64,000 nt of DNA from the IMG/VR virus record IMGVR_UViG_3300028800_000060, positions 111,699 through 175,698 of that record; one strand, written 5' to 3'. The notes under the pieces are model-generated. The model searched no databases. It saw only the letters and a program-made list of their open reading frames with translations, and was not told the DNA's origin. The position numbers and the translations under genes were made by a program. How positions within the stretch are numbered: the stretch's first letter is position 1; each line of letters begins with the position of its first letter. The stretch comes from a virus. Positions 24,995 through 45,125 of the stretch are shown piece by piece.

Positions 24995-25729
24995 ATGCAA
25001 CCAAATTCACGCGCAACATTTACGGATTACTGTTTAGGAAAATTAGGCCAAGGAATTGTTCATATCGAAATTACCCCAGCCCAAGCCGATGCTTGCATTG
25101 ATGATGCCCTAACACTATTCCGAGAATACCATTATGAAGCTACACAACGGACATACCTGAAGCACCAAATAACTGCCACTGATTTGGTAAACCATTGGAT
25201 TCCTTGTGATGATTCGATTATGTCGGTTATCAGAGTAGTGCAGGCGAATGAAGGAAATTTAAATATTTTTGATGTTCGTTACCAACTCCGACTACAAGAT
25301 TTTTACAATTTCTCCAACGTGTCGATGCAACATTTTGTTATTACTATGGAGAAATTAAGCCTCCTAGATTGGCTATTAAATCCGGAACCTACAATTTCTT
25401 TTGAACGGCTATCTAACCGAATTTATGTTAATGCCGATTGGAGTTCTCGCGTTCAACAGGGCGATTTCTTTATCTTCGAAGTATACCAATGGTTAGATGA
25501 AATCTCATATCCTAGGATTTGGACGGATAAGTGGTTAAAAGCCTATGCCACGTGCCTTATGAGGATTCAGTGGGGATCGAATACCAAGAAGTTTAATGGA
25601 ATTCAAACTTTAGGTGGTGTCGTACTCAACGGCCAGCAAATATATGATGAGGGTATGGAAGAAAAGGAAAAATTGGAAGATATTCTTTATCGTGATTACC
25701 AACGTCCAATTCGGCTATTTATCGGATAA
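24995..25729 (+). CDS. gp13: Neck protein gp13
   Basis: YCLGKLG...IEI...Q...CIDDAL..F.EYH, WLKAYAT.L...QWG.N.KKF.G.Q..GGV.LNG..IYDE; late motif GATAAATA at 24982. Confidence 0.9.
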   Translation: MQPNSRATFTDYCLGKLGQGIVHIEITPAQADACIDDALTLFREYHYEATQRTYLKHQITATDLVNHWIPCDDSIMSVIRVVQANEGNLNIFDVRYQLRLQDFYNFSNVSMQHFVITMEKLSLLDWLLNPEPTISFERLSNRIYVNADWSSRVQQGDFFIFEVYQWLDEISYPRIWTDKWLKAYATCLMRIQWGSNTKKFNGIQTLGGVVLNGQQIYDEGMEEKEKLEDILYRDYQRPIRLFIG

Positions 25730-29656: not shown

Positions 29657-30205
29657 ATGAGTTTCAAGCCTATTGAAGGACACACCTCGCTTTTTCGCGC
29701 CACCGTTCTGTCGGCAGCGCAGGCCGCCACCGTCCAACGCTTCATTGAAGCCAATGGTGGTGATCCCGTGATCCGTAACAAGGATCTTCACACCATTGCC
29801 CAGACCTTGCTCGGGATGAAGTTTTGCCCGTACTTTATTGGGAAAAATGATGCTCTCAAGATCAAGAACCAACCTGGAATGTATGATCTGAGCCGTGTCC
29901 GGGCGAGTACTAAGCCCGAGCCGGTGAAGAAGGTGAAGCCGGCAAAGAAGACCAAGAAGGTGAAGAATCCTGATCCCGCCGAGCCGGCTGTGACCGAACC
30001 CGAACCTGCGCCCGCGGAAACTCCCGTGACCGTGGAACCGGCAACTGCTCCGACTCCGAAGCCGGCAAAGAAGACCAAGAAGGCCGGCAAGGCGAAGCCG
30101 AAGAAGGAAGCGAAGGCGAAGAAGGAAGCAAAGACTTCCACCGAGGAAGTAACACCTGAAGTTCCTGTTGAAATGGTTGTGGGCGAGGACGAGCCCAGTT
30201 TGTAA
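29657..30205 (+). CDS. Protein with globular N-domain and Lys/Ala/Pro-rich (histone H1-like) tail; paralog of 39899-40369
   Basis: Promoter TTGACA-17-TAGAAT (29591-29619), AGGAG RBS; KPAKKTKK repeats; downstream hairpin GAGGGCCAC/GTGGCCCTC. Confidence 0.75.
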   Translation: MSFKPIEGHTSLFRATVLSAAQAATVQRFIEANGGDPVIRNKDLHTIAQTLLGMKFCPYFIGKNDALKIKNQPGMYDLSRVRASTKPEPVKKVKPAKKTKKVKNPDPAEPAVTEPEPAPAETPVTVEPATAPTPKPAKKTKKAGKAKPKKEAKAKKEAKTSTEEVTPEVPVEMVVGEDEPSL

Positions 30206-32432: not shown

Positions 32433-34137
32433 ATGCGAAATCAACAGCGAAACATTCTACTCCGTATTATCCACGAATACGTGGGCATATCGTATGACCA
32501 ATTGTCCCGCTTGGAAAAGAATGTGTTAAGCCTTGCTGCCACCGGTACTTCCGTGGTGATCACTCTCGATGAATTTGGCGAAATCAATCTGCCGGCTGAA
32601 GTAGCGGAGCTCTTACTCATTTGAGGAACAAATGAATACCGATAAATGCGCGAAGGAATCCGGAGGATGTGGGAAACCGGTAGAGAAATGTAAATGTTGG
32701 TCAACATTACATCATCCGTGGGACTGTGGATGCCATCGGTGTTTATCCGCGGCGCAACGGTGGCAAACGCCCAAAAAGAGGAATAAATGACCGCGCGTGA
32801 AATGCAGGGGGCTATCGGACAACAGGTTTATCTTCGCGATGGAGATGGATGTTGTTCCTTATTGTTCCTATGCACGGTCGTAGATGTAAAAACCGGTTGG
32901 GGGAAGCCAAGGTTTCTCGTAACACCCGTATCTGGTAAAGGAGAAAGATGGGTTGAATTTTCGAGTATTGAACCCGTCAAATCGGAGATTTCATATCAAT
33001 CAAATGCGGAAGTAACCGTAAATAAAACAACGGCCCGATTGACACCGAGCGTCACTTGTGTTAGTATTAAAAAGTTATGAGACTGAAAGACGAGAAATCT
33101 TCCGCCGTGATCGCCGCATATACGGTGGGAACACCCATCCAAAAGATCTACGCCAACCATCGTGTAGGACACGAGGAGATGTACAAGATGTTGCGCAAGA
33201 GAAGTATTCCTCTCCGTGAACTGCACAAAGGTGCTTGTGCGGCGCGCCAGTCAAATAAGATGTCTTGCCGGATTCTTTATTTGCCTGTGGGAGATCCATC
33301 TCCACAGGGAATTATCGATGGAATGACCAAACTGGGTTCCGTAGTAGAATACCGAGTCAGGAACTAGCCATGAAACTAACACGGCAACAGATTGATTTAT
33401 TTGTCGAAGAATTGCGACGGACTGCCTCCTCTTGGGAACGGTACGGTAATACGGATAACACCGATCGTGATATCCGGGAAGATTTACAAGTAATTGCCCG
33501 AAACTGTAACGCGTCTTAAAAGGAAAAGAAAATGACCTGCCAATATCGATATTACGGACCTGGTCAAGGTCCGTCCGAGAATTCGCGCACATGTGGCATG
33601 CCTTGTGGAGAAAAGTATTGTTCGGCGCATGCACACACCTACCATTCATCCGCGGCACAGGCTCGTCAGGAGTTTTACGTGCATCCGACGTGTGCAGGCC
33701 TGGAAGCTCTCGACGACAAGGACGTATTCGATGAGTTGGTGCTGGCCAATACCTACCCTCAAGACTGCCCGGACTGCGGCACTCCGATGGTGTGCGTAGC
33801 AGTGGGGTCGTCTACTACGACCTGGGAGTGCCAGCAATGTCACCCCGGGTTTACGGAAGCAAGTTTGACAATGTAACGCAAATTAAAGGAAAAGAAAATG
33901 ACACAAAATACTCCTGCAAAGGAACTAAAGACGCCGGCGGCCCATATCCCCGGGAAGGCCGATTACCGAATCGATCAAATCCGCCGGTATATGCGGCGGC
34001 ATGCCGGCTTCGCGGTTTTCATCAATGAAACCGTTGAAGTTAAAATGTTGCTAGCTGATGTTTTCGCCGGGGGATTGACCCGGGCGGAAATCAAGCAGTT
34101 TTTCAACAATGCCAGAAAGGTAGGAATGAACCAGTGA
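32433..34137 (+). CDS. Run of small hypothetical genes (32433-32624, 32787-33080, 33077-33367 HTH-like, 33370-33519, 33532-33876 Zn-ribbon CPDCG..CQQC, 33898-34137)
   Basis: Co-oriented packed ORFs; promoter TTGACA-18-TATGAT at 32396-32425. Confidence 0.6.
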
Positions 34138-34742
34138 CATTAGAACAATTGCAACAAAGATTCCCTGATGCCACTGAGGACACATGGTATCAGCACTCCA
34201 ATGGGGGTGGATGGATCCAGAATACGGCACGCGTGGAAACATCGGTGTATGTGGGTCCGGATGCTACGGTATCCGGAAATGCCCGGGTATCCGGAAATAC
34301 CTGGGTATCCGGAAACGCCCAGGTATTCGGAAATGCCTTTGTATCCGGAAACGCCCAGGTAACCGGAGATGCCCAGGTGTTTGGAAATGCCCGGGTATCC
34401 GGAGATGCCTGGGTATCCGGAAACGCCCAGGTAACCGGAGATGCCCTGGTATCCGGAAACGCCCAGGTATCCAGAAATGCCCGGGTGTTTGGAAATGCCC
34501 AGGTATCCGGAAATACCTGGGTATCCGGAGATTCATGGGAAACTTCACCCCTTCAGATCCAAGGCACTCGACATTTCCTCAATATGACAACCAAGTCTCT
34601 ATTGAAAATTGGATGCCATTCACATACCATCCAATGGTGGTTGAATAATTATAGGATCATTGGACAAAAAGAAGGATATACTCCGGATCAAATAAAGGAG
34701 TACAAAAAGTATATTGATCTCTTTAAATCATTGTATATTTGA
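34134..34742 (+). CDS. LbH hexapeptide-repeat protein, paralog 4, with C-terminal IGCH..W domain
   Basis: GTG start overlapping upstream stop; hexads; LKIGCHSHTIQWW...QIKEY tail. Confidence 0.85.
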   Translation: MTLEQLQQRFPDATEDTWYQHSNGGGWIQNTARVETSVYVGPDATVSGNARVSGNTWVSGNAQVFGNAFVSGNAQVTGDAQVFGNARVSGDAWVSGNAQVTGDALVSGNAQVSRNARVFGNAQVSGNTWVSGDSWETSPLQIQGTRHFLNMTTKSLLKIGCHSHTIQWWLNNYRIIGQKEGYTPDQIKEYKKYIDLFKSLYI

Positions 34743-36275: not shown

Positions 36276-36635
36276 ATGACACTAGAACAATTGCAACAAA
36301 AATTCCCTCATGCCACTGAGGACACATGGCATCAACACACCAACGGATCCGGTTGGATCCAGAATACAGCACAGGTGGCATCATCGGTGTACGTGGGTGA
36401 GGATGCTCTGGTATACGAGAATGCCTCAGTATCTGGATTTGCCACGGTGACCGGAAACGCCCGGATATATGGAAACGCCGGCATCTCTGGAAACGCCCTT
36501 GTATACGGAAATGCCCGCGTTTTTGGTCATGCTCGGGTATCCGAAGATACTTGGATGGCCGGAGATGTCGAGGTATCTGGAACTGCCACAGTATCCGGAA
36601 ATTCTCAGGTATTTGGAAATGTTCGTTTGTGTTAA
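36276..36635 (+). CDS. LbH hexapeptide-repeat protein, paralog 5
   Basis: Promoter TTGACA-17-TATCAT at 36237-36265; conserved N-terminus. Confidence 0.85.
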   Translation: MTLEQLQQKFPHATEDTWHQHTNGSGWIQNTAQVASSVYVGEDALVYENASVSGFATVTGNARIYGNAGISGNALVYGNARVFGHARVSEDTWMAGDVEVSGTATVSGNSQVFGNVRLC

Positions 36636-36649
36636 TAGGGATATAGTAT

Positions 36650-37141
36650 ATGACACTACAACAATTGCAACAAAAATTCCCTGATGCCACTGAGGACACA
36701 TGGCATCAGCACACCAACGGATCCGGTTGGATCAAGAATACGGCATATGTGGAACCATCGGTGTATGTGGGTCCGGAGGCTACGGTATCCGGAGATGCCT
36801 GGGTATCCGGAAAGGCGCGCATCTATGGTAATGCCCAAATATTTGGTAATGCCTGGATATGCGGAAATGTTTGGGTATACGACGTTGCCTGGGTATACGA
36901 AGATGCCTTTTTGTGCGGAGATGCCCAGGTGTCCGGAACTGCCTCGGTATTTGGCTATGCCTGGATCTATGATAATGCCTGGGTATCCGAAAATGCCCAA
37001 ATATTCGGAAAAGCTCAGATATACCAGAATGCCGGCGTGTCCGGACACGCATGCGTTTGTGATAACGCTCAGGTATTCGGAAATGCATTCGTATCCGGAT
37101 ACGCCCATATGTGCGGAGATGCCTTTGTGTGTGGAATATAA
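36650..37141 (+). CDS. LbH hexapeptide-repeat protein, paralog 6
   Basis: Conserved N-terminus and hexads. Confidence 0.85.
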   Translation: MTLQQLQQKFPDATEDTWHQHTNGSGWIKNTAYVEPSVYVGPEATVSGDAWVSGKARIYGNAQIFGNAWICGNVWVYDVAWVYEDAFLCGDAQVSGTASVFGYAWIYDNAWVSENAQIFGKAQIYQNAGVSGHACVCDNAQVFGNAFVSGYAHMCGDAFVCGI

Positions 37142-39898: not shown

Positions 39899-40369
39899 CT
39901 AGAGAGCGGATTCGATAGCGTTGAGTATGCTCTCTTCATCGACGGCGGGAGCGTCGATGAGCTTCACTTCAGTGTTGACGACGGGGGCTGGAGTCTTCTT
40001 TGCTTTCGACTCGCGACGTGGGCGCGATTCGCGCTTTGCTTTCACTGCGGGGGACGCGGGAGCGTCGATGAGCTTCACTTCAGTGTTGACGACGGGGGCC
40101 GGGGCGGACTTGGCGGACTTCGCGACGTGCAGACGAGACAAATCGAAGTTACTGGTCCCCTTGACGCGGAGTGCCGCGTTTTTGCCAATAAAATAGTGCA
40201 CATATCGGTGCCCGAATTGCTCTGAAGCGATGACGTGCAGTATTTTGCTCTGGATGACGGGGTTGCCCCCGTTCGCTGCGATGTACTTCTGCGTGATATC
40301 GAACTGTGCCTGGTTGACTGCTTTCGCTGCGAACAGAGACGCGTGTCCTTCGAGCTTGGTGAATGACAT
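39899..40369 (-). CDS. Paralog of 29657-30205 with basic, repeated tail
   Basis: MSF...EGH.SLF.A...ANGG.PVI..K.LH.IA...YFIGKN.AL...DLSR shared; APVVNTEVKLIDAPA twice. Confidence 0.8.
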   Translation of the reverse strand: MSFTKLEGHASLFAAKAVNQAQFDITQKYIAANGGNPVIQSKILHVIASEQFGHRYVHYFIGKNAALRVKGTSNFDLSRLHVAKSAKSAPAPVVNTEVKLIDAPASPAVKAKRESRPRRESKAKKTPAPVVNTEVKLIDAPAVDEESILNAIESAL

Positions 40370-40439
40370 AGTGGTTTTCTCTCTTTTCTTGACGTTATCG
40401 TTATCGTAAGCTCACTTTGGCTGTGGAGCTTAGTCTACT

Positions 40440-40553
40440 CTACTTGAGAGAAGAGTAGATCGTACGAAACGCAGCAAACGCGATGCAAAGTGCGAACACT
40501 ACAACGATGTCTGTTACGTTCGCGCGTACTACACTGAGAAGCGTTTCAATCAT
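40440..40553 (-). CDS. 37-aa membrane peptide lacking G/P/W (not in ORF track)
   Basis: MIETLLSVVRANVTDIVVVFALCIAFAAFRTIYSSLK*; TG-C-TATGCT -10-like box upstream on minus strand. Confidence 0.45.
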   Translation of the reverse strand: MIETLLSVVRANVTDIVVVFALCIAFAAFRTIYSSLK

Positions 40554-41068
40554 TGTCTTTGTCTCGTTTCTGCGTTTTTTGTACTAGATCGAGCATAGCA
40601 ACAAAAAAGCGAAAAAAGAGCGAACAAAACATTAAAAATCATTAATTTTTTGATGCACACTTGTAATACTCAAATTCCAGACGCTTAGACGTGCTCTAGA
40701 GACGCTTACGTGCTCTGTATCGACGCTATGACATAGACGTGCTCCAGACGTCTGCAAACGCAAAAGAACAGCAGTCTATGTCTAGATCTAGACTACTGCG
40801 TTATGCGACTCTTGAGCGAACAAAGAGCGAAATAGCGATTCTGAGCGTTTCTGAGCGTTTTTTGACGTGTTAAGCGATTCATGCGTGCTTTGTGTCAACT
40901 ATGCTCAACAAATCGCTTGGAACGTCTGCAAACGCAAAAGAACAGCATTCTACGAACGCTTCAGAACTGCATTTGACGTCTTAGCGTTCGCATGCGGAAA
41001 AAACAGTGTAATTTTTACACATAGTACTTGAAGTACTGCGAATTTTTCGTTTTCGCTTTTTATTCTAC

Positions 41069-41098
41069 TTGACACGTTTTGTCCATACTCGCTATGCT
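41069..41098 (+). promoter_or_regulatory. sigma70-type promoter of island genes
   Basis: TTGACA-18-TATGCT with T-tract UP element; ATG at 41108. Confidence 0.65.
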
Positions 41099-41107
41099 GA
41101 AATCACT

Positions 41108-41461
41108 ATGAAAACTATGCAAGTTATCGTATCAGACGCAGTAGACGAAAAGACGTTCAGCGTCGATTTCGACGAAACGATCATTGACAACAGAGCATGC
41201 TATAGCATGCTCGACAAAGTGACGTACGCGTACACTGTTGAATATGCGAACGCTCGTAACGCTTGTTACGAATTCGCAGCTATGCATTTCAAGCAAGTGC
41301 TCTCGAACTGCATTGAATTCGAGAGTGAAGACGAGCTTTACATGAGCGACATTCGCGCGCTGTTCAGCATAGCGAACACGCTAACGTCTGAGTTCTTCGT
41401 TGATATCGTTACGCGCGTACTCTTCTCTGATAGCTGTAGCTGTGATATATCTGTCAAGTAG
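41108..41461 (+). CDS. Acidic hypothetical protein with no Gly/Pro/Trp
   Basis: 117-aa ORF directly behind promoter. Confidence 0.65.
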   Translation: MKTMQVIVSDAVDEKTFSVDFDETIIDNRACYSMLDKVTYAYTVEYANARNACYEFAAMHFKQVLSNCIEFESEDELYMSDIRALFSIANTLTSEFFVDIVTRVLFSDSCSCDISVK

Positions 41462-41522
41462 TCATAGCGTTCAATACAGAGCACTGTTTATTCTACGTAT
41501 ACAGTGCTCTCAGTTAAACGCT

Positions 41523-41789
41523 ATGACTACTGACAGAATGAGCAAAGAACAGTATAAGCACGTTATGCGTACGCGTTTCGAGCGTCTAAGCTTTCAGCGA
41601 TGTGCGAACTGCGACGAAATGACGCTGTATCGCGATGTGCAAACTGAACGCGTAGCGTGCATTGAATGCTCGTACGTCGAATACGAAGCACACGTGCACG
41701 TGACGCATGCGCACACGTCGATTTCAGAGTGCAACTACGATGCTAAGACTATCGCAGCACGTATCATCGCACGTGCACGTGCACACTAG
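41523..41789 (+). CDS. Zn-ribbon-like protein with no Gly/Pro/Trp (start 41523 or 41538)
   Basis: CANC-x15-CIEC. Confidence 0.6.
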   Translation: MTTDRMSKEQYKHVMRTRFERLSFQRCANCDEMTLYRDVQTERVACIECSYVEYEAHVHVTHAHTSISECNYDAKTIAARIIARARAH

Positions 41790-41803
41790 TGCAGAATTCA
41801 ACG

Positions 41804-41997
41804 TGTGATTGGAGTTCACACTGTGCTTTGGAGGCACATGTGATTGGAGTTCACACGTCAAGTGTTACTTTACGTGTGCGGTGGTTGTACACTGTGCTTT
41901 GGAGGCACATGTGATTGGAGTTCACACGTCAAGTGTTACTTTACGTGTGCGGTGGTTGTACACTGTGCTTTGGAGGCACATGTGATTGGAGTTCACA
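41804..41997. repeat. 71-bp tandem repeat (~2.5 units) built of TGTG-N9-CACA palindromes
   Basis: CACTGTGCTTTGGAGGCACATGTGATTGGAGTTCACA at 41819, 41890, 41961; TGTGATTGGAGTTCACA also at 41804. Confidence 0.9.
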
Positions 41998-42364
41998 GTG
42001 TACGGCAGTTATTGGGGGTTCCCTGGGTATATGCTTTCGCATGATAGGCAAAACGCAAAGGCCGCAAAGGCCCCAAAGGTCCCAAAAACATGGGAAATCC
42101 AAACCAAGCTACAATCGTGAAACTTCAATGACAGTAGTGTCTATATCAGGATTCTCTATTCCAAAAAATTTTCTGGCAACTTAGATTTAGGAATTTTTCC
42201 TTGAGGATTATCACATTTATGTAAAATAAATTTTTTTGGTGGTATTTCACCATTGCAGAGATGAATTAAAATATTAGGATTTCTAGAAAGACGATCATTG
42301 TACCACAAACAGCCGCCAACAAGTGGTCGTTTTATTTACTTTAGTCCAGGTGCCATAACGTACT

Positions 42365-44579: not shown

Positions 44580-45125
44580 TTAAGTGTAAACTACATATCT
44601 CTTCCGGAATATGCGTAGATAATCCCCGTACTCCTTTATTTGATTCGGAGTATATCCTTCTTTTTGTCCAATGATCCTATAATTATCCAACCACCATTGG
44701 ATGGTATGTGAATGGCATCCAATTTTCAATAGAGACTTGGTTGTCATATTGAGGAAATGTCGAGTGCCTTGGATCTGAAGGGGTGAAGTTTCCCATGAAT
44801 CTCCGGATACCCAGGTATTTCCGGATACCTGGGCATTTCCAAACACCCGGGCATCTCCGGATACCAGGGAATTCTCATATACCCAGACATTTCCGGATAC
44901 CCGAGAATTTCCAGATACAAAGGCATTTCCAAACACCCGGGCATCTCCGGATACCCAGACATTTCCGGATACCCGAGAATTTCCATATACCAAAGCATTG
45001 GGCCCCACGTACACCGATGATGCCACCTGTGCTGTATTCTGGATCCAACCGGATCCGTTGGTGTGTTGATGCCATGTGTCCATTGTAGCATCAGGGAATT
45101 TTTGTTGCAATTGTTGTAGTGTCAT
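44580..45125 (-). CDS. LbH hexapeptide-repeat protein, paralog 7 (C-terminal domain as paralog 4)
   Basis: Conserved N-terminus, hexads, SWETSPLQIQGTRHFLNM tail. Confidence 0.85.
   Translation of the reverse strand: MTLQQLQQKFPDATMDTWHQHTNGSGWIQNTAQVASSVYVGPNALVYGNSRVSGNVWVSGDARVFGNAFVSGNSRVSGNVWVYENSLVSGDARVFGNAQVSGNTWVSGDSWETSPLQIQGTRHFLNMTTKSLLKIGCHSHTIQWWLDNYRIIGQKEGYTPNQIKEYGDYLRIFRKRYVVYT

Follow-up and report, generated by a model that had tools for sequence, protein, structure and literature searches.

Messenger RNAs that lack the triplet ACA escape MazF. Among other enzymes that act on single-stranded RNA, CmdT acts at GA (PMC11618068) and SisCsx1 cuts at C-C (PMC6754442). Readers of two or three letters also exist for DNA: Nt.CviPII nicks at ^CCD (PMC3017599) and phage CAjan carries a preQ0 mark at GA and GGC (PMC7544227). 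In phage genomes, selection is known to remove short words (Kupczok and Bollback 2014, PMC4246573), including CC, the protospacer-adjacent motif (PAM) of the Pseudomonas type I-F CRISPR system (PMC12174588). The hyperplastic regions of T4-type phages carry promoter early stem-loop (PeSL) cassettes, in which small orphan genes with early-type promoters of their own are shuffled in order and orientation (PMC2839356, PMC4122927). Here we analyse a 64,000-nt stretch of a T4-like phage (positions 111,699 to 175,698 of IMG/VR record IMGVR_UViG_3300028800_000060, hereafter the window), in which a 1.4-kb island with three small genes, encoding a hydrophobic peptide, an acidic protein and a zinc-ribbon protein, is almost free of the dinucleotides GG and CC.

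Results

A 1.4-kb island depleted of GG and CC

The preliminary description of this DNA, made by eye, had claimed that 41085-41810 contains no GG and no CC where roughly 70 would be expected at about 45% GC, and that only five such sites occur in 40427-41810, all in the non-coding region between the divergent genes. Computed counts agree on each point. The 726-bp core, at 46% GC, has neither dinucleotide against a base-composition expectation of 39.8 GG and 38.4 CC (about 78 together), and the whole island, at 44% GC, holds 2 GG and 3 CC where 67 and 68 would be expected. The run without GG/CC extends over 728 bp (41084-41810); the longest such run elsewhere in the 175,698-bp phage genome is 120 bp, and a Poisson estimate gives ~5e-24 expected gaps of this length. 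When all sixteen dinucleotides and the complementary pairs were scanned, the 728-bp run ranked first by ten orders of magnitude. All 500-bp windows of the genome with a GG/CC observed/expected ratio below 0.5 lie within the island or at its edge, and in a related 176.8-kb phage without the island (G001) the GG/CC-free gaps are all 112 bp or shorter. Genome-wide, GG and CC stand at 1.16 and 1.30 times expectation. The depletion is thus restricted to the 1.4 kb, and an ordinary GG/CC frequency is refuted.

The edges of the island are sharp (left 40425/40426, right 41811), and the flanks are rich in GG/CC words, as had been noted by eye: the 1.4 kb to the left contains CCGG eight times, GGCC five times and GGATCC twice, each of which is absent inside. 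Also as first described, the island keeps palindromic 6-mers (GAATTC three times, ACGCGT three, GCATGC four, CACGTG four and TCTAGA three), and it is rich in palindromic 4- and 6-mers without GG/CC, so that the pattern is not one of general restriction-site avoidance. A k-mer scan of the island found no strong bias in 3- and 4-mers other than those containing GG or CC. Deaminase-type hypermutation was rejected as a cause, since CG and GC are enriched (observed/expected 1.77 and 1.63), the products CT, TC, AG and GA are not (~1.0-1.16) and G+C is kept at 44%. The five residual sites (40677, 40744, 40919, 40996 and 41083) all lie inside the 554-bp non-coding stretch; all five read GGA/TCC (P ~0.006), and TCCA is common to three of them.

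The sequence is authentic. At least 17 contigs from ENA, JGI and Logan assemblies carry the island genes without a single change, each with the same 728-bp gap. The stretch is contained in 22 rhizosphere runs, and the four that were compared, as assembled contigs rather than raw reads, showed zero differences, including contigs that cross the left edge; the right edge is crossed by some independent contigs (for example L003-L005). Because identical copies occur in independent metagenomes, and because diverged orthologues exist (below), a chimeric assembly or a contaminant, both raised in the preliminary description, is excluded, as is a synthetic spike-in.

The depletion acts on the nucleic acid

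The three island proteins have 242 residues in all, and Gly, Pro and Trp, which make up 13.1% of the residues in the long open reading frames (ORFs) of the phage, are missing from them (chance ~1.5e-15). The proteins lack these amino acids because their coding DNA lacks GG and CC. At codon junctions, 30.8 GG/CC would be expected and none is observed, a state reached in none of 20,000 codon-order shuffles. Synonymous resampling with phage codon usage, starting from proteins already without Gly, Pro and Trp, gave ~9 GG/CC per larger gene versus 0 observed (P < 0.001 each). Since GG/CC at codon junctions is absent although harmless to the proteins, the ban is on the nucleic acid and not only on amino acids; the depletion acts on nucleic acid and is specific to GG/CC. 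Both GG and CC are missing from the sense strand of all three genes, showing that the avoidance is not sense-strand-specific. A translation-level cause, such as depletion or cleavage of tRNAs for Gly, Pro or Trp, was rejected: the purge extends to codon junctions and non-coding DNA, and NCU codons, which GGN anticodons read, are used.

Diverged relatives keep the rule

A combination of profile and word-index searches found three loci that encode the zinc-ribbon protein: the window, a 27.8-kb T4-like contig (L001) and a 2.2-kb contig (L011; Table 1). When 1.84 billion representative proteins were searched exhaustively by profile, only two clusters of the protein came up. Pairwise alignments of the three genes show differences at 33-43% of nucleotides, 21-26 synonymous codon changes among them, and the conserved cores contain 0, 1 and 0 GG/CC. 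About 28% of all possible single changes would make GG or CC, and 85 random substitutions in the window copy created a mean of 22 new GG/CC (minimum 6). The GG/CC-free state has been kept across 33-43% divergence, and therefore purifying selection on the nucleic acid, keeping GG:CC out of these transcription units, is well supported. Orthologous loci without depletion, which the preliminary description had named as evidence against its claim, were not what we found: the diverged orthologues are depleted too, and the genes beside them are ordinary.

The trait extends to other genes of these loci. In L001, the homologue of the membrane peptide (pairwise E 8e-5) and a 94-aa acidic gene with no similarity to the 117-aa protein of the window are GG/CC-free, and a 51-aa gene is mostly so; in L011, the upstream gene fragment is GG/CC-free. 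A neighbouring gene of a 156-165-aa family, present in all three loci, has 50-52 GG/CC and encodes 15-19 Gly, Pro or Trp residues. The order and direction of the genes vary from locus to locus, the membrane-peptide gene being inverted, the upstream gene swapped for an unrelated one and the 156-aa family gene placed differently. The GG/CC-free genes of L001 form two patches with the ordinary 165-aa gene (52 GG/CC) between them, so the trait follows genes rather than position. It belongs to particular genes of several unrelated families and not to a chromosomal location.

Further relatives were sought widely. Searches of IMG/VR at protein level and with a conserved 33-nt DNA word, of JGI metagenome contigs, and by protein word index with the 117-aa and 94-aa proteins returned nothing or the query only. 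Phage and plasmid records searched by tblastn (for the zinc-ribbon protein, 50,697 phage records and 72,556 plasmids) and by blastn yielded no relatives beyond the query. Outside the three T4-like loci, no homologue was found among these records, 5.8 billion clustered proteins or the 1.84 billion representatives.

GG/CC-free zones match predicted transcription units

Across the loci, the free zones start 20-47 nt before an ATG and end 8-26 nt past a stop codon. GG or CC returns between the -35 and -10 elements of predicted promoters (window 41083; L001 6842; L011 229 and 235) and in hairpin loops (L001 6478 and 6817; window 41811). Hexamers resembling the -10 consensus lie 6-9 nt from the ATG in five free genes, and the L011 promoter combines a consensus TTGACA with an extended TG. 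As the predicted promoters abut the ATG, the mRNAs are probably leaderless, and they are probably made by the host polymerase, as 'early' genes would be. A Shine-Dalgarno sequence cannot be written without GG, and a leaderless mRNA would solve this translation problem.

A palindrome precedes the zinc-ribbon gene in both L011 and the window (z ~-11 in both). The inverted repeat of the window has a predicted RNA fold of -51.9 kcal/mol (z -10.9), and the near-perfect palindrome of ~112 nt at L011:146-258 one of -60.7 kcal/mol. By consensus match, the L011 palindrome holds two back-to-back promoters (TTGACA-17-TATGAT, each with an extended TG), one directed toward the zinc-ribbon gene and the other antisense into the upstream gene, where it opens a 6-codon ORF. 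In L001, a motif of ~30 nt (AGAGA-loop-TCTCT followed by TTGCAT) stands before two genes and folds no better than shuffled sequences. The window has one good sigma-70-like site and no repeated PeSL consensus.

Search for a GG:CC reader in the phage genome

Matches to PF01702, PF06508 and PF01227 (DpdA/TGT, QueC and FolE), which control genomes give, are absent from the phage genome, and no C5-methylase, ThyA-type or dCMP hydroxymethylase, or RegB homologue was found in it. The one clear methylase of the genome resembles DpnA, a GATC adenine methylase.

Outside the window, at G000:C1:14177-16915 of the same genome (L023:202-2940), lies a gene for a 566-aa orphan with amino-methylase motifs (DPSAGWGG and SPPY) and a weak PF01555 match, followed by a gene for a pyridoxal phosphate (PLP) fold-II enzyme. 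The 566-aa gene is 74% identical in the related phage without the island, from which the PLP gene is absent.

Features of the island and of the variable region

The features of the island and of its relatives are collected in Table 1. Alternative starts at 41117 and 41538 give the 114-aa and 83-aa forms of the acidic and zinc-ribbon proteins that are called in metagenomes. Against Pfam and PHROGs, both proteins had sub-threshold matches only, the acidic protein to HEPN_LA2681 (E 0.0016) and the zinc-ribbon protein to phrog_1568 'DNA binding protein' (E 2e-4). The AlphaFold model of the 117-aa protein (pLDDT 39) was unusable and the ESM Atlas held no usable match; the zinc-ribbon model (pLDDT 66) matched generic zinc ribbons only (E > 0.5).

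Table 1. Positions of the island, its component features and related genes (positions in the window unless a contig is named)
Feature	Location	Strand	Remarks
GG/CC-depleted island	40427..41810	.	5 sites vs ~135 expected
156-aa gene adjoining island	39899..40369	-	ordinary GG/CC (50 sites); internal control
37-aa hydrophobic peptide gene	40440..40553	-	single transmembrane helix; no Gly/Pro/Trp; homologue L001:6863-7003, opposite relative orientation
Non-coding divergent region	40554..41107	.	554 bp; 5 GG/CC vs 46 expected
Direct repeats in non-coding region	31-nt unit 40748, 40922; 15-nt unit 40686, 40734		also AGCGAA-type repeats
Sigma-70-like promoter TTGACA-18-TATGCT (predicted)	41069..41098	+	ends 9 nt before ATG at 41108; CC 41083 in spacer
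117-aa acidic orphan gene	41108..41461	+	no Gly/Pro/Trp; 20 Asp+Glu, 9 Lys+Arg
34-nt-arm inverted repeat	41457..41531	.	spans 117-aa gene stop and zinc-ribbon gene start
88-aa zinc-ribbon gene	41523..41789	+	CxxC-x15-CxxC, then C-terminal helix; no Gly/Pro/Trp
Three 71-bp tandem repeats	41801..42013	+	at right edge; hairpins with TTGGAG loops; first GG (41811) in hairpin loop
Zinc-ribbon orthologue, L001 (27.8-kb T4-like contig)	L001:7890-8150		65% identity over aligned part; 61% in search table
Zinc-ribbon orthologue, L011 (2.2-kb contig)	L011:256-591		55% identity
-10-like hexamers	window; L001; L011		window TATGCT-9-ATG; L001 TATACT-6-ATG, TATTCT-6-ATG, TATACT-7-ATG; L011 TATGAT-6-ATG
156-182-aa family members	29657-30205, 39899-40369; L001:7094-7591; L011:985-1470; L012:8001-8375		two copies in this phage

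The source phage is a T4-like myovirus, and the window covers the final 64 kb of one 175,698-bp contig, a 98% complete genome. T4-type genes for tail sheath, scaffold, terminase, neck and gp15 were found, along with a UvrD-type helicase and a DUF4815 structural protein; the large terminase is ~49% identical to those of Synechococcus myoviruses. Positions 25.7-43.7 kb of the window (137.4-155.4 kb of the genome) form a hyperplastic region of small genes whose GC content, 45-50%, compares with ~38% for the genome. This region has no DNA similarity to G001, with which both flanks align. The contig ends are arbitrary: the genome (G000) has no end repeats, and assembled contigs show no molecule ends. 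An apparent direct terminal repeat of G001 was rejected as a 21-nt assembly overlap.

Following the 71-bp repeats, a 9-bp repeat (CAAAGGCCC x3.4) occupies 42056-42086, at the border between the variable region and AT-rich minus-strand genes, and assemblies of other samples break at these repeats. The sequence ATTGGAGTTC at 25437 was considered as a left-hand copy of the boundary repeat and rejected, as it lies inside a coding gene. At least four paralogues (34134-34742, 36276-36635, 36650-37141 and 44580-45125) share the N-terminus MTLEQLQQKFPDATEDTW, followed by 6-residue beta-solenoid repeats of the VSGNAQ type; to the left and right of the island they stand out as tandem repeats of 18 and 36 bp, and the last has YdcK and hexapeptide Pfam matches. 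The 156-182-aa family combines a conserved N-domain (PYFIGKN motif) with a Lys/Ala/Pro-rich, histone-H1-like tail. One copy of it always adjoins GG/CC-free genes, and the family is also found in a relative without the island. About 2.4 kb from the GG/CC-free genes of L001, a gene at L001:10505-11095 encodes GmrSD_N (DUF262), the N-terminal domain of modification-dependent restriction enzymes.

Elsewhere in the genome, outside the window (G000:C1:2680-3328), a 650-nt run without the dinucleotide GC falls in a collagen-like Gly-X-Y repeat gene made of GYTGPTGYTGPGNFT units. This run was rejected as a second purged island, being a compositional effect of the repeat.

Discussion

Possible escape from a factor that reads GG:CC

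That diverged relatives keep the rule suggests that something in infected cells reads the two-letter step. The purge deprives the proteins of Gly, Pro and Trp and leaves no way to write a Shine-Dalgarno sequence, and selection that removes three amino acids and the ribosome-binding site implies a strong agent acting at almost every GG/CC. To our knowledge, no such agent has been described for bacteria or their phages. Taken as a whole, the explanation that selection keeps GG:CC out of these units, and does so to let them escape something that reads it, is one toward which we lean by a little; the escape from a reader is the half of it that we infer.

The island is an accessory cassette of the hyperplastic region, with orphan genes for the membrane peptide, the acidic protein and the zinc-ribbon protein, and the predicted sigma-70-type promoters that abut the start codons probably have these genes transcribed by host RNA polymerase. 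Units free of GG:CC would make expression of the cassette immune to a factor of the infected cell that acts at GG:CC, and the GG/CC-rich rest of the phage, together with host DNA or RNA, would stay exposed to it. The factor might be a modifying, cleaving or roadblocking activity with a specificity of 2-3 nt, contributed by host defence or by phage shut-off, and the cassette would remain expressible when other messages are not. The version that we prefer, though tentatively and with less than even confidence, has the factor act on the transcribed part, either during elongation over the DNA or on the message. Held just as tentatively is the stronger proposal that a factor specific for the GG:CC step stops expression of any gene that contains it and that unrelated phages have independently evolved immune early cassettes with a 17-amino-acid alphabet and no Shine-Dalgarno sequence.

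Several observations weigh against escape from such a factor. The 315-bp divergent intergenic region of L001 is only mildly depleted (14 GG/CC sites), and the 554-bp intergenic region of the window is strongly depleted, yet not known as transcribed. In the zinc-ribbon gene of L011, a C-terminal extension of 23 codons contains 6 GG/CC, so the 3' end of a transcript can tolerate some. Promoter-like sites overall were not above shuffled controls in two of three scans, and timing, transcript ends and leaderless starts are read from consensus matches. The loci number three, all from metagenomes, and searches of the 98%-complete genome brought up no candidate reader of GG/CC. Finally, a symmetric ban on GG and CC best fits a step in double-stranded DNA, whereas the wrapping of units suggests RNA or elongation, and these indications do not converge on one simple agent.

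Alternative explanations

The preliminary description had offered three specific versions: a PAM-free refuge for the first-expressed genes, a segment kept free of a GG/CC-context base modification, and the leading end of injected DNA evading a GG/CC-directed defence. Their common ground stands, a genuine depletion at the level of nucleic acid that concerns GG/CC specifically and is maintained by selection; none of the three is shown.

We regard it as unlikely that a modification made by the phage itself marks G or C in a GG/CC context and hinders host RNA polymerase or a regulator, leaving the unmarked cassette readable first. Phage DNA marks at two or three letters exist, as in CAjan, and a mark on a base-pair step would produce the ban on both strands that is seen. 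Spacers between promoter elements are not read base-specifically, and tolerance of GG/CC there fits as well. The 566-aa protein with methylase motifs, beside a PLP enzyme, could be pointed to as a candidate enzyme, but its gene is also present in G001, which has no island, and the genome lacks the DpdA/TGT, QueC, FolE, C5-methylase and hydroxymethylase functions that were looked for. Moreover, adjacent genes with equally good sigma-70-like promoters (L001 7013-7042 and L011 906-934) have ordinary GG/CC, and usually only template-strand lesions block RNA polymerase, which predicts a strand-specific ban.

It is improbable that the cassette is a PAM-free zone, from which no spacer with a CC or NGG PAM (types I-A, I-B, I-F and II-A) could be acquired and at which none could be aimed, protecting, for example, anti-CRISPR genes. 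CC and GG are the commonest two-letter PAMs, both strands would have to be clear, as here, and PAM depletion on a genome-wide scale is documented in phages (PMC4246573; PMC12174588). With its small orphans, acidic protein and zinc-ribbon protein that could be a regulator, the cassette also resembles an anti-defence locus. The rest of the genome, however, is enriched in GG/CC, leaving the phage fully targetable. Removing ~1% of the PAMs of a genome would give little protection, and the purge is nevertheless near-absolute and overrides protein composition. GG/CC also remains in the spacers of three promoters, and a protospacer adjoining such a site would extend into the gene.

T4-type phages package their DNA by headful without a fixed leading end, which counts against placing the island at the leading end of injected DNA. 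Nothing in our data supports that version: the phage is T4-like, the contig ends are arbitrary, the free genes of L001 lie in two patches split by an ordinary gene, and the 'terminal repeat' of G001 is an assembly overlap. For T5, Davison and Brunel (1979) reportedly found the pre-early segment to be without EcoRI sites, although such sites exist in the remainder of the genome, and mutants that gain one there to become EcoRI-sensitive. A related proposal, that the cassette is a fragment surviving a frequent-cutting nuclease or nickase at GG/CC sites (of the Nt.CviPII type or modification-dependent) and is transcribed from cut-up or first-entering DNA, we consider highly improbable. An enzyme that cuts double-stranded DNA would explain the symmetric ban simply, as well as the depletion of non-coding DNA between the window genes; the nicking specificity of Nt.CviPII provides a precedent, and T5 injects its pre-early segment first (PMC10644984). 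But three promoters have GG/CC between their -35 and -10 elements, and in L001 it also lies between neighbouring free genes; cuts at such places would part promoters from genes. Of the five sites that the window tolerates, four read CCA on one strand or the other, and Nt.CviPII would cut them.

We give almost no credence to inheritance from a donor replicon that avoids GG/CC genome-wide, with the trait persisting by descent or repeated transfer and functionless here: orphan genes in a high-turnover region and a trait common to unrelated genes, as from one pool, would be in keeping with it, but the trait is kept over 33-43% nucleotide divergence within T4-like genomes, the free zones stop only tens of bases from the ends of genes and are interleaved with ordinary ones, protein, phage and plasmid searches found no homologue outside the three loci, and we know of no replicon that is GG/CC-free genome-wide.

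Returning to escape from a GG:CC reader, the cassette would be the natural footprint of an agent acting at GG/CC, and the locus supplies a clue to it: GG/CC is kept out of predicted transcription units yet allowed in promoter spacers. Its reader, once identified, could prove to be part of a new system of defence, host shut-off or DNA marking, and the three orphan proteins are candidates for the first-line response of the phage to it. The pattern also lends itself to a simple search by composition for those genes of uncultured phages that are most protected, and the island proteins show that nature can make functional proteins with no Gly, Pro or Trp.

Comparison with known systems

Full-text literature searches found no earlier account of a dinucleotide purged on the scale of genes, nor of phage genes whose products lack Gly, Pro and Trp. 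In the motif avoidance described for phages, as in the island, a short word is removed by selection, and for type I-F PAM depletion the word is the same, CC/GG. The known avoidance, however, is mild and genome-wide, whereas that of the island is confined to 1.4 kb of a GG/CC-enriched genome, is near-absolute and reaches protein composition. With PeSL cassettes the island has in common its small orphans, predicted early-type promoters of their own and shuffled order and orientation, and L001 has a repeated stem-loop-plus-promoter motif before two genes, although a weakly folding one; PeSL cassettes have not been described as avoiding a dinucleotide.

CmdT (PMC11618068) and SisCsx1 (PMC6754442) read words of 2-3 nt, as does MazF. 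Enzymes of this kind act on every message, and one that lacks the word is immune, which the match of the free zones to predicted transcription units recalls. The targets of these enzymes and of MazF are strand-specific RNA words, whereas the island lacks both GG and CC and its non-coding DNA is depleted too. Closer in this respect are viral enzymes that read double-stranded DNA at 2-3 letters on both strands, namely CAjan DpdA, which inserts preQ0 (PMC7544227), and the chlorovirus pair Nt.CviPII/M.CviPII at CCD (PMC3017599). Unlike those systems, the island genome has no DpdA, preQ0 genes or C5-methylase, and the available parts of the two sources do not mention a motif-free refuge. The first-step-transfer region of T5 (PMC10644984) likewise holds a small set of first-expressed genes, but it is a fixed terminal segment and the sites that it reportedly avoids are 6 bp long; here the avoided word has 2 nt, and in this T4-like phage there is no sign of a fixed end near the island. 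In sum, the island is an extreme local form of motif avoidance in a PeSL-like setting.

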